A stretch of 64,000 nt of DNA, taken from NCBI GenBank assembly GCA_039807095.1, contig JBDHQM010000002.1, positions 97,261-161,260 of the forward strand, in the 5' to 3' direction. Shown in pieces: positions 6,202 to 38,403 of this stretch. This DNA is from Kiritimatiellia bacterium (GTDB lineage: Bacteria; Verrucomicrobiota; Kiritimatiellia; CAIVKH01). Position 1 is the stretch's first letter; each line of letters starts with the position of its first letter. A program made the position numbers and the translations under genes. The notes beneath the pieces were generated by a model, which was not told the origin of the DNA, made no database searches, and was given only the letters and a program-made list of their open reading frames with translations.

Positions 6202-6284
6202 ATTCAAATCATCCTTCGCACGAGCTGGCACAGTGCGCAGCCACAAAACTGGTAGAGTGCGAGACGTTCATTGTCAAACTCTCC

Positions 6285-8733: not shown

Positions 8734-8790
8734 TTGGAATCCCGTCAGTATGAGCAGAAAGCCTCCCGCGTGTCCACGCCGCGCACGGCC

Positions 8791-19292: not shown

Positions 19293-20530
19293 TCTGCACC
19301 GCCTTTCGTCGTCACCGACAAAAGCAACCTCTGATAGACCTCACACAGACGATCAACTGTCGCCTGAATCGAAAAATGCTCCTCTATCGTCCGCCGTGCA
19401 GCCGAGCCGAGCCGACGACATAGCGCATCATCCATCAATACGCGGAGCAATGCAGCCGCAAGCGCCTCTGCATCGCCAACAGGAACGAGCAATCCGTTCA
19501 CACCATCCTCTACAACAGCGCGGTTCGCGGGAATATCCGACACCACGCACGGGAGCCCCCACGCCTGGGCCTCCAACAGCGCGTTGGACATCCCTTCCGC
19601 ACGTGAGGGCAAAACGAAACAACGGGCATTTTTATAATACACTGCGGGATCAGGCTGATAACCGCAAAAATGCACACCGCCCTCGCAACCCAACTCGCGC
19701 ACGACGCTGCGCCAATGGATATCCTCGCCGCCACCAAGCAAGCTCAATCGCGCGGTTGAAAGCCTCTGATGCACCCGCGCCCACGCTGCAAATAAAACAT
19801 CGAAGGCTTTGTAGCCCGCTCCCTGTGAAAGATTTCCGACATACAAAACATCACCGGCAGGATTCCACTCCAGCCTTTCGGGGAGTTCAACGCCGTTCGG
19901 GATCGTGAATATGCGCTCATCGGAAATTCCCCGCTGCACCAATCTGTTTTTCAGATGCTCTGTCGGCGCGATATACGCCGCGCGCTGTCGAAGCAGTGCC
20001 CACCGGCGACGCTCAGGCACATCGTAGCCGACGCGACTCAGCGGGTGGTCTGAACTCGCTTTGCCCAGCGCTACGCCACCGAGCGCATCGGCCGCCTCCA
20101 CCGCCACACCGGCGAGCCAGATCGCCTCGTGTGCGTGAAATATCTTCACAGTGCGGGCCTCATCCGTTCGCAACCAGGCGCGAAAATCCGAAAGAAAACC
20201 GCGTCGCGCAAGCCACTGCAACGGCAGCTCAAACCAGAATGAAAGGGCCTTGGAAGGAATTTTCGCGAACGCACGGCGAAGAACTCGAATTCCCCTGTTG
20301 AGGCGCGGCACGCATTTTCCGAGTCGCAGAATCTCTCCGCCTTCCCACGTCTCGCGCACCGGTGTATCCCGGAACGGCCGACTCGCCACGATCAACACGT
20401 CGTATCCCCGCCGCGTCAATTCAACCGCAATCCGTCGGCATTGTTTCTCCGCCCCGCCTTCACGATCCGGCGCACACGCCCACATCAGCATCGCAATTCT
20501 GGGACGACTACTATTTGGAGTTTCGTTCAT
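19289..20530 (-). CDS. glycosyltransferase family 4
   Basis: GT-B fold with a C-terminal E-x7-E region (AEGMSNALLEAQAWGLPCV). Confidence 0.8.
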   Translation of the reverse strand: MNETPNSSRPRIAMLMWACAPDREGGAEKQCRRIAVELTRRGYDVLIVASRPFRDTPVRETWEGGEILRLGKCVPRLNRGIRVLRRAFAKIPSKALSFWFELPLQWLARRGFLSDFRAWLRTDEARTVKIFHAHEAIWLAGVAVEAADALGGVALGKASSDHPLSRVGYDVPERRRWALLRQRAAYIAPTEHLKNRLVQRGISDERIFTIPNGVELPERLEWNPAGDVLYVGNLSQGAGYKAFDVLFAAWARVHQRLSTARLSLLGGGEDIHWRSVVRELGCEGGVHFCGYQPDPAVYYKNARCFVLPSRAEGMSNALLEAQAWGLPCVVSDIPANRAVVEDGVNGLLVPVGDAEALAAALLRVLMDDALCRRLGSAARRTIEEHFSIQATVDRLCEVYQRLLLSVTTKGGAE

Positions 20531-21750
20531 GCCGACTTCGCACCCGCCTCGCCGTAAAATCTGACAACGCGTTTTGCGATAGCCTCCATCTGGAATTCCG
20601 ATTCAATCCGTGCGAATGCGGCCCGACTCATCGCCGCGCGCAAAAGCGGATCATCCAGCAAACGCAGTATCCCCGTCGCCAGCGCGTCCGTATCGCCGAC
20701 AGGCACCACCACCCCGTTTTCGCCATCGCGCACCACATATTCATTGCCCGGAATTGCGCTCACTACTGCCGGGACGCCCCAACTTTGCGCTTCCAGCAGC
20801 GCGTTTGAAATACCTTCGCGCCGGGACGGCAGCAGCAGCATAAGCGCGTTGCGATACAGCGGACTTAAATCTGACACTCGCCCCGCAAAATGAACCGACG
20901 CCTCCGCACCGCGCACTCTCAAGAACTTCTGCCACACGCCCGAATCGCCCGCGCCGGCCACCACCAACTTCGCGGCGGGCCGATGCTCATGCACACGTGC
21001 CCACGCATCAAACAGGACGTCGAAGGCCTTGTTCTCAACCGGACGCGTGAGATTGGCGACATACAACACAACTCCATTCGCACCCGGATCGGGGCGCGGC
21101 TCACGGGTGGGCATAGCAATTCCATTAGGGATCACCGCGATTCGCTTTTCATCAACACCGTTTGCGGCCAGATCGGCCTTCATTTCCGGAGTCAACGCAA
21201 TGAAGTACAAACGCCTGCGCGATTCGATCATCGTGCGGCGAAAGGGGATGCCCGATTCATTCGAAAAAACCGGGAGGTTTGCCCCTTTGCATACAACCGG
21301 AACTCCTGCTCGCCGGGCCCACCACGCGCACCAGCCCGCCGTCAACGCCGCCACGTGTACATGCCAGATATCCACTTGATCGCGCAACCGGCACATCCGC
21401 CATGCGGTGCCTCCGAGCATCAGCCACAAATTTAGCCGCTTCACTATCCACGCGGCGACACAACTGCAGCGGGACGGCGAGAGCGCCGCAGCAGGCGGCG
21501 TCTTACCCGAGTCCGACTTTCCGACAGCAGGTTTCGAGCGGCGGCCGAGCAATGCCTCGATACGCGGCATTCTAATTACACGAACTCCATTCTCAATAGC
21601 ATCGCGCGGCGAATCGCGGCGCGCGCGAGTCGTGAGAATTGTCACAGAATGGCCTTGTCGCACCAGCTCTTCCGACAGGCGACGGCACTGCTGTTCCGCC
21701 CCGCCCGTTTGGTCGGGAAAGTATGACGCGATAAACATTCCGATCTTCAT
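20527..21750 (-). CDS. glycosyltransferase family 4 (start taken at MKIGMF)
   Basis: GT-B fold (REGISNALLEAQSWGVPAV). Confidence 0.75.
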   Translation of the reverse strand: MKIGMFIASYFPDQTGGAEQQCRRLSEELVRQGHSVTILTTRARRDSPRDAIENGVRVIRMPRIEALLGRRSKPAVGKSDSGKTPPAAALSPSRCSCVAAWIVKRLNLWLMLGGTAWRMCRLRDQVDIWHVHVAALTAGWCAWWARRAGVPVVCKGANLPVFSNESGIPFRRTMIESRRRLYFIALTPEMKADLAANGVDEKRIAVIPNGIAMPTREPRPDPGANGVVLYVANLTRPVENKAFDVLFDAWARVHEHRPAAKLVVAGAGDSGVWQKFLRVRGAEASVHFAGRVSDLSPLYRNALMLLLPSRREGISNALLEAQSWGVPAVVSAIPGNEYVVRDGENGVVVPVGDTDALATGILRLLDDPLLRAAMSRAAFARIESEFQMEAIAKRVVRFYGEAGAKSA

Positions 21751-21775: not shown

Positions 21776-22624
21776 CTACGGTCGCTTCCACATATAAATG
21801 CTGCCACCGATAAGCGTGAGATTAGCCGCGCGCAGCCAAGGATTTCGCCGCAGTGCTCCCAGCACGCGGGCACCGATTCCCACGCGCGCGTCTCCGCGCG
21901 GCAAGCTCAACAAATCCATCGGTGAATAGAACTGCGCAAATCCTGCCTCACGCCCCAGCGAACACAAATCGGCAAAGCTATACCAGTGCACAGCGGGGCG
22001 TGGCGAATAGTCCGCCAGCGTCGGCTTATAGTGCAGATGTTGAAAGACGTAGGATTCTCTTACTGTGCGCGGGAACCAGTTGTAGAACGGCACGCGATAT
22101 TCCCCGTTGCGGCCCAGCGGTGAAAAACGGAGCCGGTTTGTCGTCCGGACAAACAAAACACCCCCCGGCGCCAGCACGCGAAACATTTCCGCCAGACTTT
22201 TACCGGGCGAGTCCACATGCTCCAACACACCCTCCATCAGCACAATTCGCTGCGAGTGATCCGGAAACGGCATTTCTTCCGCAACACCCCATTTCACACG
22301 CGATGCATCGCCCAAATACTCACGCGCCACTGCCAGGCTTTCCTCCACCGGTTCAATGCCCACGGCATCAAACCCCTTTTCAAGCAGCGTTTTCACTGTG
22401 AGCGGGCTCGGCCCGCACCCCACAACCGCCACCGTTTTGAGGCCAGCCGACAGATCAATAAGGCGACGACAGCACTCGAGAATATCGTTAAGCCCGCCAC
22501 GTTTGAGTGTTGTCGGCAAGCGTTCATCAAACCGCTTCCGTTTATGTTCAACGTAGCGAGCAGGCAAATCCGGAACACCGGATGAAAGAGGGCGATTGCG
22601 ATACAAGTCCGAATACTTCATCAC
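21776..22624 (-). CDS. class I SAM-dependent methyltransferase
   Basis: Motif I VVGCGPS. Length and later motifs fit the Methyltransf_11/12 type. Confidence 0.75.
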   Translation of the reverse strand: MMKYSDLYRNRPLSSGVPDLPARYVEHKRKRFDERLPTTLKRGGLNDILECCRRLIDLSAGLKTVAVVGCGPSPLTVKTLLEKGFDAVGIEPVEESLAVAREYLGDASRVKWGVAEEMPFPDHSQRIVLMEGVLEHVDSPGKSLAEMFRVLAPGGVLFVRTTNRLRFSPLGRNGEYRVPFYNWFPRTVRESYVFQHLHYKPTLADYSPRPAVHWYSFADLCSLGREAGFAQFYSPMDLLSLPRGDARVGIGARVLGALRRNPWLRAANLTLIGGSIYMWKRP

Positions 22625-23388
22625 CGGCTCCCTTTCGCGCGCGAATGTTGAGACACGATAAACTCCGCAATGCGCTGTGCTTCGGCATCAAGGTTTGAAA
22701 TGCCACTCGCGCGAAGCACAGGAACGCCTCGACCCTCCAGTGCATCAGCAAGTGCATTCAGTAGGGTCGCGCCCTCCTGAAAACGTGTCTTCATTTTATC
22801 TACGGGTTCACTCCCGAACAGGACAGGGGGCTGTCCGCGTCCTTGTACGCGCTCTACGCAGACATCGGCCGGAGTATCCACACAAATCAAGACATCCGGC
22901 GCGGGCAACAATGCGGCATAGCGCTCAGCGTCCGCAGGTTTGCCCAGCCCGCGATAACCGCGCAACGAGAAGAATCGGTGCGCAAACCCTTCGTCGAGCA
23001 CAACAATTCCATCCAGTTGTTTCGCCAATTGAAATTCAAAGCCTGAAGTCAACACCGCGCGAAATACCGGATCGCGCCAACTCGAATCCGTCCCGGATAC
23101 AGCGAGCCATTCGTGCAGCAACGCGACGAAATCCGCGTGCTCGACTGCAAAGCGATGCCAATCGTTCAGCCCGTGGGGCAGTCCGAGAAAATGCCGGCGC
23201 CAGGCAGGAATGAGCCGGCCACACAGATTGCCAATGACTCCGAAATCACGCGCACGCAAACCCCGCTCAACTACGTCCTCGCGATTCGCAGCCTCGATAC
23301 CGCGCGCGCGCAACGCCTTCACCACCACTCCGCAGAGCGTGCTCTTGCCCGCCGCAGGGACGCCGCAAAACTCTACGCGCATTTTCAC
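22621..23388 (-). CDS. P-loop NTPase, small-molecule kinase-like
   Basis: N-terminal Walker A motif (GVPAAGKST) and a Walker B-like VVLDEGF. 255 aa. Coupled by ATGA overlap to the methyltransferase. Confidence 0.5.
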   Translation of the reverse strand: MKMRVEFCGVPAAGKSTLCGVVVKALRARGIEAANREDVVERGLRARDFGVIGNLCGRLIPAWRRHFLGLPHGLNDWHRFAVEHADFVALLHEWLAVSGTDSSWRDPVFRAVLTSGFEFQLAKQLDGIVVLDEGFAHRFFSLRGYRGLGKPADAERYAALLPAPDVLICVDTPADVCVERVQGRGQPPVLFGSEPVDKMKTRFQEGATLLNALADALEGRGVPVLRASGISNLDAEAQRIAEFIVSQHSRAKGSR

Positions 23389-24749
23389 GAACCGGCCTCA
23401 TTCGGAATCAGCCAAAACGAGTGCTTCGCAAATGGGCGGATATCGTAATTCGCCCGAATATTCGAGACCTCCATCATCCGGCTCATCGTCTCGCGAATTT
23501 CTGCCTCGTCCAGCCCTGGAAATTTCTGGGAGCTGTAACCATCCGACACCAGTTGTGCCTCGCGCCGGGCATGAAGTCGTACCCGCCACATGCGCTTCGC
23601 CTCGGCCAACATCCGTTGTTTTGCAGAAAATTGACCGAGCGGTTTCCTGCCCGCCAATTCCACCAGCTCATTTGTAATCCGTTCCGCGGATGTCACCCCG
23701 GACAGACCGGCCATATAGCGCTTGGCAGTTGTCCACTGTTCGTCCGTCCACAAGACACCTCGCTCGCGAGCCGTCTTTCGCCCCTCCAGTGCAACGAACA
23801 GTTCATCCATCGAAAACACGTTCTCACTCAATGCATTCGGCAAGTGATTTTCATATCGCGGATAGCGCTTGGGGCGATACGCAATCGCCGGAACATCCAG
23901 AAGGAAAGATTCGACGGCGGTTGTGCAGTTAAAGTGAATCACCACTTCCGACGCCAGTATCCACTCGTGCACATTGCCGCTGCCATCCACATGCAAACGC
24001 GGATGCCTCTTGGCCAGCTCCAACCACGGTGCATGGCTTTCAGAGGGATGTGGGCGGACGACCACCGCATGCTTTGGATAACGCGCGAGAATCTCAGGCA
24101 CCATGGCGAGATACGCCTCGTGCATCTCGCGATGCATGGCGATCCACTTCTCCATGTAGCCGGGCTCGTTGTTGATCGGATATCGGGCCAATAATTTCTT
24201 CACTTCTTCCGGCGATTTGAAGTGATTGTGAAAAGCGAAGTTGGTGTTCACCAGCAGCATCGGACCGAACCGCGCGCGCAGTTGCTCGACGGGCTCCCGA
24301 TAAAAGGGCCGCAATTCCGGGCGCAAGAAATCGAAGCGAGGGTTGCCGCACAACGCAATCCGATCAACGTATTGTGGATATTCCTCACAGATCGCCTCGC
24401 GTTGCACCTCACCCCACGCGAAGAATCGCGTCACCTGATCCAGGGATTCGGGGACGATCCGCTGTTTGCGATACAGCCACGCATCAAAAAAAACCAATCC
24501 CTCTTCATCCCACGAAACTAATTCGTGTCCCATCGCCCGGCAGCGGCGAAACCAATCCGTTCGCGTCGCGGCAACGCTCTTGTCCAAATAGATCGCGGGT
24601 TCGACCAGATCCGCATAATCCCAGAGTCGCCCCTGCACGCCGAAAAGGACCGGATGCCCTCTGCTCAAAACATTGAGCGCGAGCCACAGCTTTCCGTGAA
24701 ACTCACGTGCCTTCGTCTCTACAGGTATAATGACAGCCGTCTTCTTCAC
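23385..24749 (-). CDS. TagF/KpsS-fold transferase ('surface carbohydrate biosynthesis protein' type), candidate CMP-ulosonate or polyol-phosphate transferase
   Basis: An RPHP motif and a downstream HFNCTTAVESF block resemble the CDP-glycerol glycerophosphotransferase / capsule-synthesis fold. Located beside neuB and neuA. Confidence 0.45.
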   Translation of the reverse strand: MKKTAVIIPVETKAREFHGKLWLALNVLSRGHPVLFGVQGRLWDYADLVEPAIYLDKSVAATRTDWFRRCRAMGHELVSWDEEGLVFFDAWLYRKQRIVPESLDQVTRFFAWGEVQREAICEEYPQYVDRIALCGNPRFDFLRPELRPFYREPVEQLRARFGPMLLVNTNFAFHNHFKSPEEVKKLLARYPINNEPGYMEKWIAMHREMHEAYLAMVPEILARYPKHAVVVRPHPSESHAPWLELAKRHPRLHVDGSGNVHEWILASEVVIHFNCTTAVESFLLDVPAIAYRPKRYPRYENHLPNALSENVFSMDELFVALEGRKTARERGVLWTDEQWTTAKRYMAGLSGVTSAERITNELVELAGRKPLGQFSAKQRMLAEAKRMWRVRLHARREAQLVSDGYSSQKFPGLDEAEIRETMSRMMEVSNIRANYDIRPFAKHSFWLIPNEAGS

Positions 24750-24758
24750 GCTGCATTC

Positions 24759-27011
24759 CTACAATCCAAATCGCTCCAGGCGCTCAAGGGCCACCCAAAA
24801 ACCCTCTCCACCATTTTTGTGGCCCTGCCAGATTTCCGGCATGAAGGAGGCGCCGGGGCACACCTCCTTCAACTGCGCGCAAAGCGCGGGAAAGTCCAGC
24901 TCGCCCTCGCCCACCTGCAATCCCTCTCCATCGGTTCCACGAGCATCCGCCATGTGCAGATGCGCAGCAAACGGCCCCACCTGATCCACAAACTCCTTGA
25001 ACGAAGTTTTGTAATGATTGCAGGCGAGTTTTGAGTGACTCACATCGAAGCAGAGGCGCAAGTTATTCGCGCGGCAGAACTCCACTGTGTCTTCTGCTTT
25101 GACAAAAAGATTGAGGTACATCTGCCCGCCGAAATACCAGGGGAATGGAGGCAGAGTCTGGCCAATAATCTCGACGCCGTCCGAATCTAACTCCCGCAAA
25201 CTGCGCGCCATAATTTCGTAGCGCTTGCTTACTTCGGGTTCCGACAAAAATCCGTCTCGCGAAAATCCGCCCAAACTAACAATAATGACCGGGCGCGTTG
25301 CCTTCTTAAAGTAGGGCTTCAGCTTTCGCGTCAAGTCCACCACGCGCTGGAGCTCGGCAATGGATCGCGCACGATGCGCTTCATCCGGATTTGAGAGATC
25401 GAGAAGGTGATCGCCATTGAACGTATCGGGACTGTGCACCTTGAAGTCCAGATCAAGAGGCTCGCCGAAGTAGCGCTCATACTCCTCATCCATGTCCTTA
25501 AAGCTCAGATGAAACTCGATGAAGTCGGGATTCGACTTCTTTCGTATTTCCTGGAAGTCGTGCCAACGCACCGTGACCCCCCACGGCCGACTAAAGCGAT
25601 AGTGCCGCGCCTGTGCGATGGGCTGCTCAATGTCACCGGCAAAAAAGAAATCGCCTTTCTTTAGATTGCGCGTGGCGCGCCGACCGATCAGCTCCGGTTT
25701 TCGATTTGGCTGCAACCCCCGCCCGGGGCTCCGAATTTCCACCGCGCTCTCATCAATCTCCTCGCCTTGTGCGATATCGCGTGCAGCAACAAGACTCTTG
25801 GCAAGGTTTGAGCGATTCATCAGTTCGCCCTGCGAAAGCGTGCGCGGATGGCCCGTTCCGATGGATTCTTCAACCTGCCGAATACCCTCAACCATTGCCG
25901 CAAATTCGTCCGGCAACAGACTCGCTTTATGGTCCGATCCTTCGAGGTTTCGGTCCAGCGTGATGTGCTTTTCGATAATCTTCGCGCCCTGCGTCACAGC
26001 CGAAATGGCAACGTGAATACCGCGCTCGTGACCGGAATATCCGACGAGACATCCGCCGATCGAGCGTAACCGGGACAGGTAGGCAAGGTTAATGTCTTTG
26101 AACGGCGCGGGGTACGTTGAATTGCAGTGCAACAGCGCATAGGCACTTCCATTCCGGCGCAGCACCTTCACGGTTTCCGCGATCTCATCCTCCGTGGACA
26201 TACCCGTCGAAAGAATCAACGGCTTATACGTTCGCGCAAGCTTCTCGATGAACGGATGATTCGTCAAATCCGCCGAAGCAACTTTGTATGCCTCCATCCC
26301 GTTGCGCTCCAGCACGTCCAGGCTCTCTTCTTCCCACGGAGTGCACAGCACGGCGAGGTCGAGAGAGCGGGCGTAATCAAACAGCGCAAGCATATCCGGG
26401 ACGGGTAGCTCGAACTTTTCCAACAGATTGAGCGTATATTGAGCGCCGAGGTCCTCCCCCGCCACACCGCCCGGCGTGTTGCGGTACAAATGCGACATTG
26501 AGCGCATCTGAAACTTCACCGCATCTACACGCGCATCGCGCGCCGCGCGGATCAGGCGACGCGCCATCTCCACGCTGCCGTTATGATTGATCCCGACCTC
26601 CGCGATGACGAAAACCGGCCCCTCGTCGCTGATTACGCGGTCACCGATTTTCAGCCCTTCAAACAATCCGCGACGGCGCACCACGCCAATCAAACGGCGG
26701 CGCGCGTCCAGCAGCGGCAGAAATTTTACGCGATCGGAAAAACGACGGCGAATTTCCTCCTGCGATTCGCCTTCCAGTGCCACCGCACAGGAGCGCACGA
26801 GAATCGTGCGAACCGGCTCGCGCAGATTCGCCACAGATTGCTTCATCAGCCAGCGTCGCACGTCGCCGTCGGTCAGAACACCCTCCAGCACACCGTACTC
26901 ATCCACGCCGATAACAAATCCCTTATGATTCGCGTCGAGGCGATGCAACGCCTCCGCAATCGGCGTATCCGCATTCACGCTCCACGGTCGGACATCGCGT
27001 TCGATGATCAT
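24759..27011 (-). CDS. neuB: tri-domain fusion: CBS pair + N-acylneuraminate/ulosonate-9-P synthase (NeuB, with SAF domain) + xylose-isomerase-like TIM-barrel sugar isomerase/epimerase
   Basis: NeuB core motif (VFVIAEVGINHNGS...VKFQ) and a SAF domain. The C-terminal roughly 260 aa has the TIM-barrel AP_endonuc_2-like pattern. The ORF as listed overlaps neuA by 43 bp, so the start was taken at MIIERD. Confidence 0.75.
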   Translation of the reverse strand: MIIERDVRPWSVNADTPIAEALHRLDANHKGFVIGVDEYGVLEGVLTDGDVRRWLMKQSVANLREPVRTILVRSCAVALEGESQEEIRRRFSDRVKFLPLLDARRRLIGVVRRRGLFEGLKIGDRVISDEGPVFVIAEVGINHNGSVEMARRLIRAARDARVDAVKFQMRSMSHLYRNTPGGVAGEDLGAQYTLNLLEKFELPVPDMLALFDYARSLDLAVLCTPWEEESLDVLERNGMEAYKVASADLTNHPFIEKLARTYKPLILSTGMSTEDEIAETVKVLRRNGSAYALLHCNSTYPAPFKDINLAYLSRLRSIGGCLVGYSGHERGIHVAISAVTQGAKIIEKHITLDRNLEGSDHKASLLPDEFAAMVEGIRQVEESIGTGHPRTLSQGELMNRSNLAKSLVAARDIAQGEEIDESAVEIRSPGRGLQPNRKPELIGRRATRNLKKGDFFFAGDIEQPIAQARHYRFSRPWGVTVRWHDFQEIRKKSNPDFIEFHLSFKDMDEEYERYFGEPLDLDFKVHSPDTFNGDHLLDLSNPDEAHRARSIAELQRVVDLTRKLKPYFKKATRPVIIVSLGGFSRDGFLSEPEVSKRYEIMARSLRELDSDGVEIIGQTLPPFPWYFGGQMYLNLFVKAEDTVEFCRANNLRLCFDVSHSKLACNHYKTSFKEFVDQVGPFAAHLHMADARGTDGEGLQVGEGELDFPALCAQLKEVCPGASFMPEIWQGHKNGGEGFWVALERLERFGL

Positions 27012-27724
27012 GTCGGATTCTCCCCGCGTTGAAGCAGAAAACTCGCCCACTCCAAATCCATTTCGGAATCAATATCTACTCCAGCCTCTTCAGTCATTTT
27101 GAACAAAACGATTTTGCCGCCCAACCGATTGTTTCCCTGCCGCAGCACCCACGGTTTGAAAATGTAAATGGATCCGTTCTCCCGATAGCGTGGCGCCATG
27201 TCCTGACGCCGCGGGCGTACACGCCAGTCGCGATTGACCGCGACCGCAGATCCATCCTGTTCTTCCCAAAGAAACAGATGAGAGGGCGAAACAGAGACAA
27301 CAGAATCGGCATTCGATTCCTCTAGCAAGGCAATAGCGGAATCAATATCCATTCCGGTTCGAATCGGACACGTTGCTTGTAGAAATACGACGAGGTCAGG
27401 GTCTCCGCCCCGGTCTGCCGCGATGCAATCCAACGCGTGCAACAGCGCAGCCTCGGATGTTGTCGAGTCTTCCGCCAAGACCGCCGGGCGATCAATAATC
27501 TGTGCGCCGGCATCTTGTGCTGCGCACTTAATCTCGGCGTCATCCGTGCTGACATACACACAAGAGACGCGTTGAGACTCAAGCGCATCGGCGACGCTCC
27601 ACGCAATCAGTGGGCGCCCCGCTACAGGACGCACATTTTTTCGCGGCACACCCTTGGATCCGCCGCGCGCCGGGATGATGGCGACGACGTTTTCGAATCG
27701 CTGACTGTGCTGGGAGGGGTTCAT
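27008..27724 (-). CDS. neuA: acylneuraminate (CMP-ulosonate) cytidylyltransferase
   Basis: IPARGGSKGVPRKN motif of the CTP_transf_3 family. Confidence 0.85.
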   Translation of the reverse strand: MNPSQHSQRFENVVAIIPARGGSKGVPRKNVRPVAGRPLIAWSVADALESQRVSCVYVSTDDAEIKCAAQDAGAQIIDRPAVLAEDSTTSEAALLHALDCIAADRGGDPDLVVFLQATCPIRTGMDIDSAIALLEESNADSVVSVSPSHLFLWEEQDGSAVAVNRDWRVRPRRQDMAPRYRENGSIYIFKPWVLRQGNNRLGGKIVLFKMTEEAGVDIDSEMDLEWASFLLQRGENPT

Positions 27725-29481
27725 GCTGAGGCTTCGGCGTTCTTCGCCTTTTTCTCCACCACAAAATCGCCAAGCACCAACACGTCAATCTCCGTACCCA
27801 GGAAGCACGCAACCGCCTGCTCCGGAGTTTGGACAATCGGCTGCCCCTTTACATTGAAGGATGTATTCAACAGCACAGGACAGCCGGTCTTCTTATGAAA
27901 CGCAGTGAGCAACTCGTAGAAGCGCTCGTTGTTTTCCCGACCGACCGACTGCACCCGGCACGAATCATCCACATGGACCGTTGCCGGAATCGCCGACTTC
28001 TTCGCCGGCTGCACTTTGCACGCGATCAGCATGTGCGGACTTTCCTGCCCGATGTCGAAGTATTCATGCACATATTCCTTCAAACACGCCGGAGCAAGCG
28101 GCCGGAAATACTCGCGGAACTTCACGTTGTCGTTAATGTGATCGCGCATCGCCTCCGGATACGGCTTGGCAAGAATACTGCGATTGCCGAGCGCGCGCGG
28201 ACCGAATTCTGCTCCGCCCTGATACCAGCCAATCACCTTCCCCGCAGCCAGTTTGTCAGCAACATCGGCGTAAAGATTTGGCGGACGCGTGTATGCCACG
28301 CCGGCACTCTTGAGCGCCTGCTCCATTTCGGCCGACGTGTAGTCGCCGTGCAGATAATAGTTGTGGTTTTTGACCGGCCGGTAATTCGGATCATGTGCGC
28401 GCTGCGCAAGGAAACACGCGCCGATCGCCAGTCCGGCGTCACCCGATGCAGGCTGCACGAAGATTTCGTCAAATATATGCTCGCGCTCAATCCGCCCGTT
28501 CATCGAGCAGTTCAGCGCAACGCCGCCGCTCAAGCACAGATACTTGATTCCCGTATCTTTGCGCGCATTGCGCAGCACACCCAACACAACCTCCTCAAGG
28601 CGCCGCTGCAAGGCAGCGGCAATATCTTTATGGTGCTGATTTAGCGTTGCGACATCGTACTTCCGGCGCGGGCCGAACACTTCGACAAAGCGGTCCGACA
28701 CCCATTTATTCCGCTCATAATAATACGCCATCCATTCCGGATTGATGGTGATAGTGTATTTCCCGTCATACTGAATGATATCTTCAAAAAACGAATAGTA
28801 GCTCCGCGTCTGCCCCGGCACGATATGATCGGAATCACCAAAGCACGCCAGCGCCATGATGATGCCCTCATGGTGCACATTCTTCCACCCGAGATAGCAG
28901 GTGATCGCGGCATACACCAATCCGAGTGAATGCGGGTAATCGTAGCGGTCATACAAGACCTCAATCGCGCCTGCCCGCCCGACGCCCAGTTTCATCGTCT
29001 TGTTGTCGCCGATGCCGTCAATGCTCAGCAACACAGCATCCTGAAATCCGCTCGGATAATACGAACTCGCCAGATGTGTGAGGTGGTGATCGAAATAGGA
29101 AATCTTTCCCGTAAAACCGGTCTTCTCGCGGATGATCTCTTCCACATTGAACATCTCTTTGATGCGCTCAAACTCCTGAATCATCATGCCCACGCGTTTG
29201 GGGTCGCGAATTGCCGCCTCGAGATACGTTCTGCGAATGCACGCCTCCGGATCCCCGCCGAATGCAATTTCGTCCACATCGGCCATCGTCAGCTTTGCCT
29301 TCCGTAGGCAATCCTGAATTGCATCTGTCGGAAACAGCCGGCTGTGCTTATCCAGTGAATAGCGCTCCTGCTCGCACGCGGCGATCAGCTTGCCATCCAC
29401 CATAATCGCGGCTGCTGTATCGTGTGCCAGATACTTGATCCCCAAAATCACTTTTTTCATTCGATTCATCCTTTCCAACAT
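27721..29481 (-). CDS. carbamoyltransferase (NodU/CmcH family); start probably at 29460
   Basis: FDHHLTHL metal-binding motif and a YrdC/Kae1-like C-terminal region. Confidence 0.8.
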   Translation of the reverse strand: MLERMNRMKKVILGIKYLAHDTAAAIMVDGKLIAACEQERYSLDKHSRLFPTDAIQDCLRKAKLTMADVDEIAFGGDPEACIRRTYLEAAIRDPKRVGMMIQEFERIKEMFNVEEIIREKTGFTGKISYFDHHLTHLASSYYPSGFQDAVLLSIDGIGDNKTMKLGVGRAGAIEVLYDRYDYPHSLGLVYAAITCYLGWKNVHHEGIIMALACFGDSDHIVPGQTRSYYSFFEDIIQYDGKYTITINPEWMAYYYERNKWVSDRFVEVFGPRRKYDVATLNQHHKDIAAALQRRLEEVVLGVLRNARKDTGIKYLCLSGGVALNCSMNGRIEREHIFDEIFVQPASGDAGLAIGACFLAQRAHDPNYRPVKNHNYYLHGDYTSAEMEQALKSAGVAYTRPPNLYADVADKLAAGKVIGWYQGGAEFGPRALGNRSILAKPYPEAMRDHINDNVKFREYFRPLAPACLKEYVHEYFDIGQESPHMLIACKVQPAKKSAIPATVHVDDSCRVQSVGRENNERFYELLTAFHKKTGCPVLLNTSFNVKGQPIVQTPEQAVACFLGTEIDVLVLGDFVVEKKAKNAEASA

Positions 29482-33109: not shown

Positions 33110-33885
33110 AAATCGGGCTCATATTTTCCCCACGCATGGCACCCGAACGGCAAACGCCCGTTCATGCGAGCCACATAGCTCGATGGCTCCAGTTCCAGCG
33201 CAAAATACATCGCTTCCTCTTCGCGAGGAATCCGGAAACCGGGAGGCGCAAACATTGTCCAGAACATATCTTCATTTCCCGGCCACTGCGCAGCGAACTT
33301 CCCGTGCGTCATCAGGGTCTGGCGAAAACCCGGTATACGGCGCAGCGAGAAACCGCCATTGCCCACGCGAAAATCACGGCGATACCAGAGTCGCGCCAAT
33401 CCCGGCCACTGCACCAACCGTGGCCGCGCCTCGCGCACATGGCGATGGCGCAATAGGTCCCGACTGCCCCACGGCGCGCCGATATAGTCATACCCACGCG
33501 CGCACCAGTCCTCCAATTCATCGCGGAAAACAAAGGCATCCAACTGATAAATCAGCAAGTATTCCCACCCGCGAAATCGGGCATAAAAATCATCGGAAAG
33601 CAGCAGGCGGCTGTATGCGTCAACGCTCACAAATGCCGATGCTGGGAAATACTCGGTTTTCACTCCCTCAAACTCCGGAGGCAGGATCAAACCTTCCGGG
33701 CAAATGATGCGGATGTCGTGGCGGCCCAAAATACGGCGGCACTGTGCAAGCGACAGGCGCTCTTCCGCGCTGAGCGTCTCCTTGAAGCAGGGCACTAATA
33801 CGACACAACTCATTTTGTCATCCACACGTTCCCGCACACCCGGCGCATCACAGCCATACGTCACGCCGAGTTGACGATCTCCCAT
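33076..33885 (-). CDS. DUF5672-like glycan-cluster protein (putative GT-A-like transferase)
   Basis: YQLDAFVFRD DxD-type block. Typical companion of GT2 genes. Confidence 0.45.
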   Translation of the reverse strand: MGDRQLGVTYGCDAPGVRERVDDKMSCVVLVPCFKETLSAEERLSLAQCRRILGRHDIRIICPEGLILPPEFEGVKTEYFPASAFVSVDAYSRLLLSDDFYARFRGWEYLLIYQLDAFVFRDELEDWCARGYDYIGAPWGSRDLLRHRHVREARPRLVQWPGLARLWYRRDFRVGNGGFSLRRIPGFRQTLMTHGKFAAQWPGNEDMFWTMFAPPGFRIPREEEAMYFALELEPSSYVARMNGRLPFGCHAWGKYEPDFWAAHIPGGSS

Positions 33886-35174
33886 TGATGCGACACCAGA
33901 ACCCCCGAATTATCGCTGATCTTTTGCAGTTTGCCCGTCCCGTAAAAATCTCCGTCAACGACGAATAACTCCAGGCCGTCAATCAATTCATCCGCAACGG
34001 TTTTGCCAACCTTGCAGAACAGATGCACCACATAGCGTCCCGGAAGCAGCGGCAACTTTGGAATTGTGAGGCGAATCGTGCCGCGCCGCCCCAAGCGAAG
34101 GGTCTCCGGATGCGAGACGCGCGAAAAACACAGGAATTTTTCCTGACGGGTCTCACCCGATGCCACTCGAAAATAAATGAAGCACGGTTGATCGTTCATC
34201 ACGGTGCGCTCGTAATCCAACTCAACCGTAATGGTTTCGCCAGACTGCGCCGCGTTGATGACGACGTTTCGCTCGTTACGAATTCGATAACCAGTAAAAC
34301 GCACACTGCCGTCCCCGCTCCGGTCGGTTCGTTCGTTGATGGGCAGATGCGACGCCTTCGGTAAATGCGTTTTCAGATACGCTTCTGTAATTTCCTGCAC
34401 ATTGCCGATCATCTGGCACTCACCGCCGCGCAAGAGAACAGCCCGGGAACAGAGCGCCTGAATCGCGGCCATGTTGTGACTGACAAATAAAATCGTACGC
34501 CCCTCTTTTGAGACGTCTTGCATACGGCCAAGGCATTTCGCCTGAAACTCCGCATCACCTACCGCGAGCACCTCGTCCACGATCAATATCTCTGGCTCCA
34601 AATGCGCCGCCACCGCAAAGGCAAGTCGAACGTACATTCCGCTCGAATAACGCTTCACCGGTGTATCTATGAACGCGCTCAACTCGGCGAAGGCAACAAT
34701 CTCGTCCAGTTTGCGGGCGACTTCTCGCTCCTTCATGCCGAGAATCGTGCCGTTCATAAATACATTTTCTCGCCCGGTCAGCTCCGGATGGAAACCCGTA
34801 CCCACCTCAAGCAACGAACCAATTCGACCGCGAATTCGCACCTCGCCAGAGGTGGGTTCTGTGATGCGACTCAGAATCTTCAGGAGCGTGGATTTGCCCG
34901 CGCCATTGCGGCCGATGATGCCGACAACTTCTCCCGGCTGCACATCGAATGAAACATCGCGCAAGGCCCAGAAGTCCTGGTTTCCAGCCTGTTCTGCCTC
35001 GACCCGGCGACGCTCAGTCGCGCCGTATCCGATTTTTTCAAACGCCTTCCGCGGATCGCGGCCGCGCAGTTTGTGCCACCAATACTTGGTTTCATCAATT
35101 AGCGTGTGCCGCCCGATCGTCCCCAATCGGTATCGCTTCGAAAGATTGTGAATGGAAATTGCCGCCTCGCTCAT
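33861..35174 (-). CDS. wzt: ABC transporter ATP-binding protein Wzt with C-terminal glycan-binding domain
   Basis: Walker A GRNGAGKST, signature YSSGM, Walker B ILIVDE. A C-terminal extension of about 170 aa as in Wzt/TagH-type exporters. Confidence 0.85.
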   Translation of the reverse strand: MSEAAISIHNLSKRYRLGTIGRHTLIDETKYWWHKLRGRDPRKAFEKIGYGATERRRVEAEQAGNQDFWALRDVSFDVQPGEVVGIIGRNGAGKSTLLKILSRITEPTSGEVRIRGRIGSLLEVGTGFHPELTGRENVFMNGTILGMKEREVARKLDEIVAFAELSAFIDTPVKRYSSGMYVRLAFAVAAHLEPEILIVDEVLAVGDAEFQAKCLGRMQDVSKEGRTILFVSHNMAAIQALCSRAVLLRGGECQMIGNVQEITEAYLKTHLPKASHLPINERTDRSGDGSVRFTGYRIRNERNVVINAAQSGETITVELDYERTVMNDQPCFIYFRVASGETRQEKFLCFSRVSHPETLRLGRRGTIRLTIPKLPLLPGRYVVHLFCKVGKTVADELIDGLELFVVDGDFYGTGKLQKISDNSGVLVSHQWEIVNSA

Positions 35175-36007
35175 ATCGTATCCACAAACGTGCGTTGAAC
35201 TTTATTGAAGAGGAAAAGGCCGGACACCAAAACAAGCGCAGTGACAAACCAGCTCAAGCCCAGCCCCCAAAGCTCCGGGCTCCCCCGCCCCGTGAGTGCA
35301 TAGCGGCTGAACTCCACAACCGCGGTCATCGGATTAAGCCACAGCACAAACTTCAGGATCGGTTTCACAACCAGTTTGGCGGGATACACAATTGGCGTGC
35401 CATACATCCACAACTGCACCAGAAACGGCAGAGCGAAACGCAGGTCGCGATACTTGATCGTCGCCGCCGAGACCCACAATCCGAATCCGAGTCCGAGCAG
35501 TCCCGTCTGTAGAATCAACAGAGGCAGGAAGAAAACCCACGCATTCGGCTCCATCGCGCTCCCGCGGAAATAATACCAAAAGTAGAAGCCGAGAAACAAA
35601 AGCGAGTTCAGTGCAAGATGGGCAAACTGCACAAACACGCCGGACAACGGCATGATCAGGCGCGGGAAATACACCTTTGTTAGGATATTTGTGTTGGACA
35701 CCAGCGATGTCGCGCCTTGATTCAACACGCCCTGAAAATAATTCCAAAACAGCGTTCCGCTCATGTAGAAAATGAACTGCGGAATTCCATCTGTCGAAAT
35801 CTTTGCCACCGTTCCGAAGATCACCGTAAAGACGATCGTCGTAAGCAGCGGCTGAATCACAAACCAAAGCGGCCCGATGATTGTCTGGCGATACACCGCG
35901 GTCAGCTCGCGCTTGACCCACAGGGTCAAAAGATCACGGTATTCCCACAGCTCGCGCACCGGAATCCGCCACCAGGGACTGTTTGCTCGAATAACGGTTG
36001 TCTGCAT
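35171..36007 (-). CDS. wzm: ABC-2 type polysaccharide exporter permease Wzm
   Basis: Six-TM ABC-2 permease, ATGA-coupled to wzt. Confidence 0.85.
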   Translation of the reverse strand: MQTTVIRANSPWWRIPVRELWEYRDLLTLWVKRELTAVYRQTIIGPLWFVIQPLLTTIVFTVIFGTVAKISTDGIPQFIFYMSGTLFWNYFQGVLNQGATSLVSNTNILTKVYFPRLIMPLSGVFVQFAHLALNSLLFLGFYFWYYFRGSAMEPNAWVFFLPLLILQTGLLGLGFGLWVSAATIKYRDLRFALPFLVQLWMYGTPIVYPAKLVVKPILKFVLWLNPMTAVVEFSRYALTGRGSPELWGLGLSWFVTALVLVSGLFLFNKVQRTFVDTI

Positions 36008-36551: not shown

Positions 36552-36623
36552 AGGCAGTTTGCCGGGGTGGCGTCAATGGATTTCTTTCCATCGCGGCGGC
36601 CGCGTTGCGAAGATTGACGCACC

Positions 36624-37763
36624 ATGCCGCGCGTGCAACTCTTTCGCGCCATGGATGCCACAGCAGCGGAACGCGACAACCAGACTACCGGCGCCGTGCG
36701 CATTCTCTACTCTTCTTTCCAAACCGGTCCTGCCCTGCCGGGATACATCCGCTACGCACTTACCAGTTTCGCGCGCAGCGGCATGCCGGTCGTCTTGCTG
36801 ACAAATCGCCGCGAGCTGGACGAGGAAAGCAAACAGTTCCTCGCGGCAAACGGAATCGAGCTGTTTCTCACCGAGAATGATGGATTCGATTTCGGTATGT
36901 GGCGCCGCTTCATCAACGCCACGCCTGAAGGAGTTCGCAATGCCTGGTCGCGCATCCTCCTCGCCAACGACTCCGTGGTTTATTTTCGCGACACCATCCC
37001 CGACTTCATCGCTCAGGCAGAAATGAATGACGCCGACATGGTCTCGCTCACCGCAAACCCAAATCTTGGCTTTCACCTGCAATCATTCTTTCTCTATCTC
37101 AAGCCGCGTGCGATCCACGAGCTTTTCCGCCATCTCTCAACAGGCGCCTCCTCAACCGGGTATTGGGACACGATCAAATCCATGGAAGTGGGATTGAGTC
37201 GGCGAATGGTTGAGAGCGGATTGAAAATCGCGCCCCTCTTTCGCACAAGCAAACACATTGATTTTTCGTACGAAGAACTGATCCGCCAGGGTGCGGGTTT
37301 TGTGAAGCGACGCTTCGTGGATGGACGATACAAACACTCATCGCCCACCTATTTTTGGAAAAACGGAGAGGCGCGGGCGATTGAACTCGATTATGTGCGC
37401 CTCATTCGCGAAGCGGGCAATCTAGATCCCGCCTTTTCTCTCGATTGGATCAGCGACCTGAATACACACCCCTCTTTTCGGTCCGCGCTCTATAGGCTCC
37501 GAAAATTCGCGTTTTACGCCGTATATCCGGGTTTTCGCGCAATTCAACGCTATCGGCGCTATGCAACGCCGACAGTTTTGATGGCCGATCTTGCCTCAAT
37601 CTTCGTGTGCGTTGCCGCGGCAGCGACAGGCGGATATTTCTTCGGATGGCGGTCTGCGCTTGCGGGATTTTTGGCGATGTTTTTTCTGATTCTTGCGGTG
37701 CGTCGCCTACGCTCTCGTGTCAGAAAGCGAAACGGATCGTCTATTTCCGCAGGACAACGGTAA
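36624..37763 (+). CDS. putative polysaccharide-biosynthesis transferase-like protein with C-terminal TM anchor
   Basis: The only plus-strand gene in the locus. It is divergent from the regulator. No firm family assignment. Confidence 0.3.
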   Translation: MPRVQLFRAMDATAAERDNQTTGAVRILYSSFQTGPALPGYIRYALTSFARSGMPVVLLTNRRELDEESKQFLAANGIELFLTENDGFDFGMWRRFINATPEGVRNAWSRILLANDSVVYFRDTIPDFIAQAEMNDADMVSLTANPNLGFHLQSFFLYLKPRAIHELFRHLSTGASSTGYWDTIKSMEVGLSRRMVESGLKIAPLFRTSKHIDFSYEELIRQGAGFVKRRFVDGRYKHSSPTYFWKNGEARAIELDYVRLIREAGNLDPAFSLDWISDLNTHPSFRSALYRLRKFAFYAVYPGFRAIQRYRRYATPTVLMADLASIFVCVAAAATGGYFFGWRSALAGFLAMFFLILAVRRLRSRVRKRNGSSISAGQR

Positions 37764-38403
37764 AGCCGTTGCCAATTTTGTCGTCCCGGCCCTGCACGGC
37801 TTCAATCTTTACCGGCGCGGGAAAAAGGCCACTGCGATTCATGTGGAGAATAAGCTCCAACAGATCTTCTGTAACCCAGACTGAGTAGTGGCCATCCGGC
37901 GGATCAAACGGTGCAATTTTTCCGGCATGGCGATCGAGCAGTTCCGACAACTGAGTTCGTTGTTTCTCTTTGTCGAAGGTTCGCTCTTTGTGCGGGACAA
38001 TGATGAAAATGATCCCGCCGGGCCGCACGAGGCGATACCACTCTTGAAGCGCTTTGATTGGATCGAAAAAATGCTCCAGCACGTGCGAGTTGATCACGAA
38101 ATCAACTGACGCATCGGGCAGCGGAACTGCGTCGCCCGGTGCGACAATATCCACGGGCAACGCGCGCCCACATGCGCTGATTTCCATTTCTTTGTAGACC
38201 GTTTGCTCGCGCGTATAGTCCACATTGCGCGTGTTTAGTCCGAACGGATTGTGTGCTGCACCGCCAATCTCCAGCCCCTCGCCCTTGCAGAATTCCTTGG
38301 CAAGTGCAGAAGGCCGGTTGGGACGCCGATCCAATCGAAGAAGATGCTCCAATCGTTTTCGAAGCGGGCGCGGCACTCCAATATCTTTCAAGAAAGATCG
38401 CAT
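37741..38403 (-). CDS. class I SAM-dependent methyltransferase
   Basis: LEIGGAAHNPF motif I and VDFVINSHVLEHF motif II. Confidence 0.75.
   Translation of the reverse strand: MRSFLKDIGVPRPLRKRLEHLLRLDRRPNRPSALAKEFCKGEGLEIGGAAHNPFGLNTRNVDYTREQTVYKEMEISACGRALPVDIVAPGDAVPLPDASVDFVINSHVLEHFFDPIKALQEWYRLVRPGGIIFIIVPHKERTFDKEKQRTQLSELLDRHAGKIAPFDPPDGHYSVWVTEDLLELILHMNRSGLFPAPVKIEAVQGRDDKIGNGFTVVLRK

Follow-up and report, generated by a model that had tools for sequence, protein, structure and literature searches.

Chain terminators and related systems

The terminator WbdD of E. coli O9a and K. pneumoniae O3 combines a kinase resembling eukaryotic protein kinases, a coiled-coil ruler and a membrane anchor in a single polypeptide. 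A coiled-coil ruler is present in the protein of every characterised terminator (PMC11231755). Methyl-phosphate terminators can also use an unrelated kinase fold, as in ORF6 of K. pneumoniae O7, in which an AmiN/aminoglycoside-kinase-like kinase is fused to methyltransferase, carbohydrate-binding (CBM), coiled-coil and polymerase glycosyltransferase (GT) modules (PMC11231755). In the Kdo terminators WbbB of K. pneumoniae O12 (GT99) and ORF7 of O4 (GT137), a dedicated transferase adds the ulosonic acid from its CMP-activated form, and the Wzm/Wzt locus encodes a Wzt with a CBM. Glycan kinases of the P-loop type are rare, LpxK being one example, and the Kdo kinase KdkA, which acts on the lipid-linked residue newly added by the monofunctional Kdo transferase WaaA, has a protein-kinase-like fold.

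Transferases of nonulosonic acids (NulO) are represented by Tanf_01245/TFUB4_00887 of Tannerella forsythia (BFO_1060 family), which have D/E-D/E-G and HP motifs and a TagB-like GT-B fold, and in this organism the glycan ends in the nonulosonic acid (PMC5420450). The Tannerella loci serve protein O-glycosylation, and a partner kinase is undescribed there. To our knowledge few nonulosonic-acid transferases are known, and their accessory enzymes are uncharacterised.

Organization of the locus

The window analysed here, a 64,000-nucleotide stretch from a Kiritimatiellia bacterium, resembles the WbdD systems in that genes for a kinase-like protein and a SAM-dependent methyltransferase (MT282) are adjacent in a glycan operon that depends on an ABC transporter and encodes a Wzt with a Wzt_C module (Table 1). 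A first-pass annotation had proposed that these two proteins form a split WbdD-like chain terminator paired with the Wzt. The open reading frames of the kinase, MT282 and the Wzt were all confirmed where it had placed them. The kinase and methyltransferase genes are indeed coupled, but their junction is not the ATGA originally read; it is GTGA, a 4-nt overlap, or TGATG. At its other end the kinase start is overlapped by the stop codon of the TIGR04396 gene, and this pair is also GTGA-coupled. Because the kinase has 35 close homologues and 342 cluster representatives at E<=1e-10, the genes of the locus are more than chance open reading frames.

Table 1. Features of the glycan locus, in coordinates of the window
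Feature	Coordinates	Strand	Details
First of three GT4 glycosyltransferases	20527..21750	-	Glyco_trans_1_4 + Glycos_transf_1
Class I SAM-dependent methyltransferase MT282	21776..22624	-	282 aa; overlaps kinase stop codon
P-loop kinase-like protein	22621..23388	-	255 aa from GTG 23388; 253 aa from ATG 23382
TIGR04396 'surface carbohydrate biosynthesis protein'	23385..24749	-	454 aa; predicted CMP-ulosonic/nonulosonic-acid glycosyltransferase
CBS-NeuB-SAF-AP_endonuc_2 fusion, ulosonic-acid synthase	24759..27050	-	763 aa; Pfam NeuB E 1e-79, with CBS, SAF and AP_endonuc_2 domains
CMP-ulosonic-acid synthetase (cytidylyltransferase)	27008..27724	-	238 aa; CTP_transf_3 E 2e-21
NodU/CmcH-type O-carbamoyltransferase	27721..29481	-	586 aa; Carbam_trans_N E 1e-58, Carbam_trans_C E 1e-70; NodU-like
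Wzt ABC ATPase with C-terminal Wzt_C module	33861..35174	-	437 aa; ABC_tran + Wzt_C
Wzt_C portion of Wzt (carbohydrate-binding module)	33957..34328	-	residues 283-406; Pfam PF14524
Wzm ABC-2 permease	35171..36007	-	278 aa; ABC2_membrane E 9e-17
Second SAM methyltransferase	37741..38403	-	220 aa; Methyltransf_11 E 4e-13
hisD	38419-39783

Conservation of the kinase neighbourhood

Gene neighbourhoods were compared in 14 lineages (loci, designated by L numbers) that carry the kinase, 13 of them with upstream flank. All 13 encode an orthologue of TIGR04396 together with CTP_transf_3 and NeuB proteins, and these partners are kept even beside kinases of only 26-30% identity (L019, L020 and L022). The TIGR04396 gene is usually immediately upstream of the kinase gene and overlaps it, the stop and start codons overlapping in the window, L001, L008, L019 and L024. 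Downstream, the gene next to the kinase in most related loci is an orthologue of the first GT4 gene (286-628 bits in L005, L006, L008, L011, L019, L020 and L022). In Kiritimatiellia, Verrucomicrobia and relatives the kinase family is genetically locked to ulosonic-acid transferases of the TIGR04396 type. Three NeuB architectures occur with the kinase (CBS-NeuB-SAF-AP_endonuc_2, NeuB-cupin, and plain NeuB with Epimerase_2 and DegT), which links the kinase to transfer or assembly and not to the biosynthesis of one sugar. Distant relatives of the kinase (E about 1e-18) are found outside ulosonate loci, one in a glycan locus with no NeuB within 10 kb (L023) and one with no glycan locus at all (L021). 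Mobile elements or housekeeping genes surround L015-L018 and L021 and offered no hint of function.

The TIGR04396 protein of the window scored above the NCBIfam cutoff, contains both sialyltransferase motifs (D/E-D/E-G and HP), has a TagF-like (TagB/TagF) GT-B fold in its structure model, and is homologous to the Tannerella NulO transferases (E 1e-23). It scored 83.8 against the BFO_1060 model, below the cutoff of 200, and TIGR04396 is therefore a sister family to BFO_1060. The NeuB fusion matched TIGR03569 at 321 bits, below the equivalog cutoff, and the cytidylyltransferase is PseF-like at 116.8 bits, also below the cutoff. Since the sugar is made by a NeuB-type synthase, it would be nonulosonic or Kdn-like, and not Kdo.

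We tentatively favour, at somewhat less than even confidence, an explanation in which the 255-aa protein is catalytically active, transfers phosphate from ATP and thereby assists glycan assembly at its ulosonic-acid (sialic-acid-like) step. The genomic context supports the involvement in glycan modification that was first proposed. The kinase travels with a sialic-acid-type transferase and not with the methyltransferase or the Wzt, and is therefore probably an unstudied glycan kinase rather than half of a split WbdD-like terminator. The NeuB and cytidylyltransferase proteins would provide a CMP-activated ulosonic acid, which the coupled upstream TIGR04396 GT-B enzyme would move onto a lipid-linked glycan. 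By the logic proposed here from KdkA acting after WaaA, the kinase would then phosphorylate this glycan at or beside the ulosonate residue, after which the GT4 enzymes encoded downstream may act on the same lipid-linked intermediate. MT282 would be a lineage-specific addition that decorates the ulosonate end of the glycan, on either a sugar hydroxyl or the phosphate. If the kinase does phosphorylate a glycan it would represent a new class of glycan kinase, and phosphorylated sialic-acid-like termini would be predicted on environmental bacterial surfaces. Against this explanation, the nearest solved structures act on nucleotides or nucleosides and not on glycans, the catalytic geometry of the kinase is non-canonical (see below), and some distant relatives lie outside ulosonate loci. 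We also know of no described phosphorylated nonulosonic-acid glycan; the open-access literature text searched under TIGR04396, polysaccharide-cluster P-loop kinases and phosphorylated nonulosonic acids contained neither such a glycan nor an account of the kinase family.

Comparison with WbdD-like termination

The component annotations behind the terminator proposal were correct. MT282 is a class I SAM methyltransferase, as first annotated, with a match to Methyltransf_11 at 58.6 bits (cutoff 21.2, E 1e-15) and to four further class I models, scores above the Pfam cutoffs also being obtained for Methyltransf_25, _23 and _31; the domain spans residues ~60-230. The C-terminal extension of the Wzt contains the predicted carbohydrate-binding module, Wzt_C scoring 37.4 bits (gathering score 30.4, E 3e-9), with ABC_tran at residues 71-202. 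The best PDB match to the Wzt was 8dku, the full-length Aquifex Wzt with its carbohydrate-binding domain (E 4e-69), and the C-domain alone, when compared with the PDB by sequence, gave no match to any entry, solved CBMs included.

Under the terminator proposal, the P-loop kinase and the methyltransferase would cap the non-reducing end with methyl-phosphate and so stop polymerisation, the cap being the ligand of the Wzt C-terminal module, in a split system that evolved independently of WbdD. The overlap of the two genes and the Wzt_C module in the same operon are consistent with this, as are the MT282 orthologues directly after the kinase in two more lineages (the L001 group and L014) and the unrelated kinase fold already known from Klebsiella O7, where ORF6 sets a precedent for the independent kinase origin envisaged. 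In L019 a different methyltransferase follows the kinase, and the MT282 orthologue lies 5 kb further on, past an IS element. The partnership is poorly conserved, however: only 4 of the 14 lineages (the window, the L001 group, L014 and L019) have a methyltransferase gene right after the kinase, while in the other ten the next gene encodes a GT4 enzyme, a hexapeptide transferase, an ABC exporter or an Asn-synthase-like protein. No methyltransferase was found in the sequence available for L003 and L024, nor in the ~3 kb of downstream flank of L020. Orthologues of MT282 were found only in L001/2/9/10/13, L014 and L019, and the gene represents an insertion, specific to certain lineages, that separates the kinase from the first GT4 gene. 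The methyltransferase shows no detectable specific similarity to WbdD, which was absent from its PDB matches at E<=0.01, all of these being generic methyltransferases.

The pairing with Wzt varies among the relatives. A Wzt_C-bearing Wzt accompanies the kinase in the window, L002/L009 and L012. In at least four loci (L003, L008, L019 and L022) the exporter is instead a fused ABC_membrane/ABC_tran protein and neither Wzm nor Wzt occurs within 10 kb, which counts against the terminator proposal; the flanks of the other loci are too short for this comparison. Where WbdD is one polypeptide, the window has two small separate proteins, and the architecture of O7 ORF6 is likewise absent. No long coiled-coil candidate was found in any protein of the locus by a crude composition scan; the longest helix of the kinase model has 24 residues, and in the TIGR04396 model the longest has 26 (198-223, within the GT-B core) and the C-terminal one 24. 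The many different GTs of the operon suggest a complex heteroglycan, and not a homopolymer measured by a ruler. We therefore regard the split WbdD-like terminator as unlikely; the idea is weakened but not refuted, because in the window lineage the methyltransferase is coupled to the kinase and the Wzt_C module is present. A kinase gene beside a methyltransferase and a Wzt_C module is thus no safe sign of a WbdD analogue unless the conservation of the partnership is checked.

It is similarly improbable, for the window lineage itself, that the kinase and the coupled methyltransferase place phosphate or methyl-phosphate on the ulosonic-acid end and that this cap is read by the Wzt C-terminal module. 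Methyl-phosphate termination would then have recruited a kinase type independently for a third time, here with two free-standing proteins and no coiled-coil ruler. A better candidate for a terminator in this locus is the CMP-ulosonic-acid-dependent GT-B transferase, by analogy with the Kdo terminators of Klebsiella O12 and O4. Judged in this way, WbbB and ORF7 appear to be the closest functional counterparts of the TIGR04396 protein and Wzt_C module of the window, although here the sugar is NeuB-derived and the transferase is a TIGR04396/TagF-like GT-B enzyme without a coiled coil. As in those systems, the Wzt C-terminal module probably recognises an ulosonic-acid-bearing terminus. The NodU/CmcH-type O-carbamoyltransferase is a candidate for another end-modifying enzyme.

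The P-loop kinase family

The structure model of the kinase is a compact 253-aa globule with the P-loop fold of NMP and deoxynucleoside kinases, bearing out the first-pass view that its fold is unlike the eukaryotic-like kinase fold of WbdD. Profile searches assigned the protein to no family. The 255-aa protein was below threshold for every thymidylate kinase (TMPK), deoxynucleoside kinase (dNK) and kinase model scored, with 20.4 bits against a cutoff of 27 for Thymidylate_kin (PF02223) and 16.9 bits against 83.25 for TIGR00041, and dNK (PF01712) gave a weak match in only 7 of 36 relatives. Identity to the thymidylate/deoxynucleoside/adenylate kinase superfamily is 11-21%. The family, of ~250 aa, is without a Pfam or NCBIfam model and is previously undescribed and uncharacterised.

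Thymidylate and deoxynucleoside kinases are defined by a P-loop, a LID rich in arginine and, following strand 3, a DR(Y/H) or ERS motif. In the window protein the P-loop and LID arginines R178 and R182 are present and conserved, and after strand 3 DR(Y/H)/ERS is replaced by D130-E131-G132, with glycine at the arginine position; the catalytic geometry is therefore non-canonical. The LID arginines and the glutamate after strand 3 are kept as in true kinases even in very distant relatives. Residues on the substrate side of the pocket are invariant across the family, and a helical insert, ~30 residues longer than that of NMP kinases, is rich in invariant tryptophan and arginine.

Several other identities were considered. 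The sub-threshold scores and the missing DR(Y/H) arginine led us to reject a bona fide thymidylate or deoxynucleoside kinase. The only trace of a BY-kinase or Wzc-type chain-length regulator was a weak match to BceF (E 1.4), and none was among the top structural matches. The protein is not a sulfotransferase, an outcome that would have counted against the terminator proposal: neither a PAPS-binding 5'-PSB motif nor a sulfotransferase fold as best match was found.

It is possible, with a probability we also consider low, that the protein is a nucleotide kinase which phosphorylates the CMP left by the ulosonic-acid transferase to CDP, easing product inhibition and recycling CTP for the cytidylyltransferase. 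NMP kinases are the best structural matches to the model, and the gene is coupled to that of a CMP-releasing transferase and lies near that of a CTP-consuming cytidylyltransferase; relatives also carry the automatic names 'thymidylate kinase' or 'broad-specificity NMP kinase'. The model scores, the loss of the phosphate-acceptor arginine of DR(Y/H) and the long insert all argue against this activity, and a housekeeping Cmk would make a dedicated CMP kinase copy redundant. The setting also differs from that of the superfamily, being one of glycan assembly and not of nucleotide metabolism.

Slightly less probable still is a role in precursor supply, in which the kinase would act ahead of transfer, phosphorylating either a free sugar or the ulosonic acid, itself free or bound to CMP, and might for instance feed a phosphate-dependent NeuB route. 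A variant of this would be 3'-phosphorylation of a cytidine-linked donor, as carried out by Cj1415 in Campylobacter MeOPN synthesis. The kinase gene always falls within or borders the NeuB/cytidylyltransferase block, and HAD phosphatases beside NeuB in L005 and L006 hint at phosphorylated intermediates, but a domain profile search found no HAD phosphatase in the window locus. The variety of NeuB architectures also argues against precursor supply, as the classical NeuB/Epimerase_2/DegT set needs no kinase. At least 962 TIGR04396 proteins were found at E<=1e-10, far more than the close kinase homologues, and the pathway therefore generally runs without the kinase.

A non-catalytic or regulatory NTPase that helps to scaffold or assemble the transferase/exporter complex is very unlikely: the tight coupling to the transferase gene, the fused ABC exporter adjoining the kinase in L003, L008, L020 and L022, and the non-canonical, Walker-B-like D-E-G motif would suit it, but the conservation of the LID arginines, of the glutamate and of the substrate-side pocket counts against it.

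Two further points concern gene annotation. The second methyltransferase, which the first-pass annotation had placed at the upstream end of the locus, is a real gene, but its position immediately downstream of hisD, ahead of the MarR gene with which homologous loci begin, leaves its membership of the locus uncertain. The GT4 gene after MT282 most likely starts at the ATG at position 21750, and not at 21873.

A kinase-fold protein of an undescribed family

The 255-aa P-loop protein has a canonical Walker A motif (GVPAAGKST) and reaches the threshold of no Pfam or NCBIfam model. Its 35 close homologues are nearly all unnamed metagenomic proteins, together with proteins from Kiritimatiellia and Verrucomicrobia MAGs. 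A profile search of 1.84 billion representatives returned 342 at E<=1e-10, all single-domain and approximately 250-270 aa long; source names of relatives were generic only ('AAA ATPase', 'thymidylate kinase', 'NMP kinase'). Relatives with identities as low as 17% all or nearly all share the Walker A Gly and Lys, E4, P160, the E131-G132 pair beyond strand 3, and LID arginines R178 and R182. The DR(Y/H)/ERS arginine is absent, with D-E-G instead, and the inter-strand helical insert (residues 34-121) is enlarged, with W61, R62, W75, W92, W102 and R103 invariant in the close family. Foldseek agreed with the kinase-fold placement. Judged from the alignments, this conservation pattern is that of an active P-loop kinase, and conserved residues and fold together point to an undescribed family of enzymes with the kinase fold. 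Thymidylate kinase proper, sulfotransferase and WbdD-type kinase were each rejected as its identity. The first-pass annotation had distinguished the P-loop type from the WbdD kinase, which the fold bears out, and had named classification as a sulfotransferase among its refuting outcomes, which did not hold.

Conserved pairing with a predicted nonulosonic acid transferase

Relatives of the kinase, 65% down to 26% identical, were found in loci of 14 distinct lineages. Annotation of these loci drew on precomputed Pfam hits and on phmmer searches with the window proteins as queries. A TIGR04396 orthologue, CTP_transf_3 and NeuB occur in all 13 lineages with upstream flank. The TIGR04396 gene lies directly upstream of the kinase in eight of these and at a distance of one to four genes in the remaining five, and overlaps the kinase start in the window and in four further loci (L001, L008, L019 and L024). 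The window's 454-aa member scores 345.9 bits against TIGR04396 (cutoff 125) and matches the BFO_1060 transferase family (E 1e-23), whose Tannerella forsythia namesakes are implicated genetically as pseudaminic/legionaminic acid transferases adding the terminal sugar of an O-glycan, and share D/E-D/E-G and HP motifs with bacterial sialyltransferases (PMC5420450). Across 36 aligned homologues, D81-E82-E83-G84, R232, P233, P235 and E237 do not vary, and H234 hardly does. The kinase is paired across deep divergence with a GT-B enzyme bearing sialyltransferase motifs.

The pairing is independent of NeuB pathway type, methyltransferase and exporter type. NeuB occurs as a four-domain fusion, a NeuB-cupin (L006, L008), a short NeuB (L005) or classical NeuB accompanied by Epimerase_2 and DegT (L022); the kinase is therefore not bound to the route to a single sugar. 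A methyltransferase directly follows the kinase in only 4 of 14 lineages: orthologues of the window's 282-aa enzyme in the window, the L001 group and L014, and a different one in L019, where the orthologue lies 5 kb away beside a GT4 gene, past an IS element. The gene after the kinase in the remaining ten encodes a GT4, hexapeptide acyltransferase, ABC exporter or Asn-synthase-like amidotransferase. Wzm/Wzt were found in the window, L002/L009 and L012, while in L003, L008, L019 and L022 the module itself includes a fused ABC_membrane/ABC_tran exporter and Wzm/Wzt are absent within 10 kb; in L020 the fused exporter is accompanied by a Wzm fragment at the locus edge. Instead of using Wzm/Wzt, the fused-exporter loci may rely on PglK/MsbA-like flipping of a lipid-linked oligosaccharide. 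Two distant relatives depart from this setting: L023 lies in a glycan locus with Wzm/Wzt and no NeuB nearby, and L021 outside any glycan locus.

The fused exporter is embedded in the ulosonic acid module in five loci, often adjoining the kinase. Asn-synthase-like amidotransferases recur beside kinase or GT4 genes in more distant loci; the window has none. They presumably resemble PseA/PtmG, enzymes that make acetamidino groups on nonulosonic acids.

The 751-763-aa CBS-NeuB-SAF-AP_endonuc_2 fusion also occurs in L001, L003, L007, L012, L019, L020 and L024. Its AP_endonuc_2 part is a xylose-isomerase-like TIM barrel, and the cupin fused to NeuB in L006 and L008 shows faint lyxose isomerase similarity. 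Genes of the NeuC, PseB or LegB type are absent from the window locus, so the product may be a Kdn-like sugar derived from an isomerised hexose.

Comparison with known chain terminators

Polymerase-terminator systems, as summarised in a 2024 Klebsiella study (PMC11231755), end chains with methyl, methyl-phosphate or Kdo. Recognition of the terminus by a CBM on Wzt restricts export to terminated chains, and in every system the protein that carries terminator activity also has a coiled-coil ruler. The O7 terminator kinase has a fold unrelated to WbdD (PMC11231755), a precedent for independent kinase recruitment. The first-pass annotation had proposed the kinase and 282-aa methyltransferase as a split WbdD-like methyl-phosphate terminator. 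Its components were confirmed: the methyltransferase is class I SAM-dependent (Methyltransf_11, E 1e-15), and Wzt carries a glycan-binding-type module (Wzt_C, residues 283-406, 37.4 bits, cutoff 30.4), its closest PDB relative being the complete Aquifex Wzt, carbohydrate-binding domain included. The gene overlap is real, but the kinase/methyltransferase junction reads GTGA or TGATG, not ATGA. As a terminator, however, the pair differs from WbdD in kinase fold, shows no coiled coil of the kind present in characterised terminators, is not inherited as a unit among relatives, and its methyltransferase shows no specific similarity to WbdD. Co-occurrence with Wzt_C, the one remaining feature, is seen in some lineages only. 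The WbdD analogy, though attractive, is what the evidence supports least.

The locus does have a predicted counterpart of the CMP-ulosonic-acid-dependent transferase of the Klebsiella O12/O4 terminators, and by that analogy Wzt_C is most simply read as recognising an ulosonic-acid-bearing end, which carbamoyltransferase, methyltransferase and/or kinase may further decorate. The window and L012 Wzt proteins align well over the ATPase part (380 bits overall), while their C-terminal modules are barely alignable (28 bits); L012 lacks the carbamoyltransferase and methyltransferase. This single sequence comparison is consistent with a CBM that changes along with the glycan terminus.

Proposed function

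We tentatively favour, at somewhat below even odds, a role in which the kinase would act once the ulosonate has been transferred and phosphorylate the lipid-linked glycan on that residue or beside it, with methylation an optional decoration; the same logic applies to KdkA, the Kdo kinase that follows WaaA. The methyl-phosphate terminator is unlikely, Wzt_C and the O7 precedent notwithstanding. Equally unlikely is a nucleotide kinase recycling CMP, which the 'NMP kinase' labels and the cytidylyltransferase would suit; the D-E-G motif replaces the DR(Y/H)/ERS arginine. A precursor or donor kinase would fit beside NeuB and is slightly less probable again, NeuB architecture being so variable. A non-catalytic NTPase, for a protein retaining its catalytic residues, is the least probable. 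With its robust synteny, this undescribed family offers a clear experimental target: perhaps a P-loop glycan kinase that works alongside nonulosonic acid transferases.

The glycan locus

The operon as a whole is unremarkable, an ABC-transporter-dependent glycan locus that includes a nonulosonic acid module, its genes co-directional and closely packed or overlapping from Wzm to the last GT4 gene. Identities were assigned by Pfam and NCBIfam and are listed in transcription order. The TIGR04396 stop overlaps the kinase start as GTGA, and 25 nt separate the methyltransferase from a likely GT4 start at 21750.

Features of the glycan locus and related loci
Feature	Location	Strand	Remarks
hisD	38419-39783	-	Histidinol_dh, E 2e-141
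ORF, 379 aa	36624-37763	+	weak sub-threshold RgpF match
ORF, 169 aa	36573-37082	-	
MarR			before Wzm
Wzm	35171-36007	-	array start
Wzt	33861-35174	-	after Wzm
DUF5672	33076-33885	-	after Wzt; E 5e-48
GT2 x3		-	after Wzt
DUF6625	29493-30389	-	after Wzt; E 2e-57
NodU-type carbamoyltransferase		-	after DUF6625
CTP_transf_3 cytidylyltransferase	27008-27724	-	
CBS-NeuB-SAF-AP_endonuc_2 fusion	24759-27050	-	
TIGR04396 protein, 454 aa	23385-24749	-	NCBIfam
P-loop protein, 255 aa	22621-23388	-	Walker A
Methyltransferase, 282 aa	21776-22624	-	Methyltransf_11
GT4 x3		-	after methyltransferase
MBOAT (DltB/AlgI-like)	16685-18169	-	after methyltransferase
356-aa protein	15699-16769		no family match
Several membrane proteins		-	listed after MBOAT
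GT-C-like membrane protein, 571 aa	10563-12278		weak ALG10/GT87/ALG3 matches
LIC_10190-family membrane protein	8791-10602		
PpgS-like polyprenyl-phosphate-sugar synthase	8002-8733		
DUF2304 protein	7403-8188		
GT4	6285-7406	-	array end
hisC	5176-6246	-	TIGR01141, 316 bits, above cutoff
Two transposases	1016-2593; 2770-3810		DDE_Tnp_1; IS110 (DEDD_Tnp_IS110 + Transposase_20)
Wzt	L012 1854-3209		
Fused ABC exporter	L003 7729-9465; L008 10916-12673; L019 1622-3427; L020 7097-8848; L022 8235-10004		578-601 aa
Asn-synthase-like amidotransferase	L008 14062-15927; L019 11614-13470; L020 12031-13875; L022 5162-6904, 10822-12738		

The array (~32 kb) is flanked by hisD and hisC on the same strand, as if an island had inserted within a his operon, a position recalling enterobacterial his-linked O-antigen loci. 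Two transposase genes border the glycan region just past hisC. The two overlapping candidate ORFs at 36573-37763 lie between a 220-aa methyltransferase and MarR. DUF6625 and DUF5672 are conserved members of these loci, and that DUF6625 is joined with GT2 in L001, L003 and L007 suggests that both are uncharacterised glycosyltransferase-like enzymes. MBOAT and the 356-aa protein, a pair kept in L011 and L024, are probably a glycan O-acylation pair. The four-gene group at 7403-12278 resembles extracytoplasmic 'three-component' glycosylation sets (PMC11127046).
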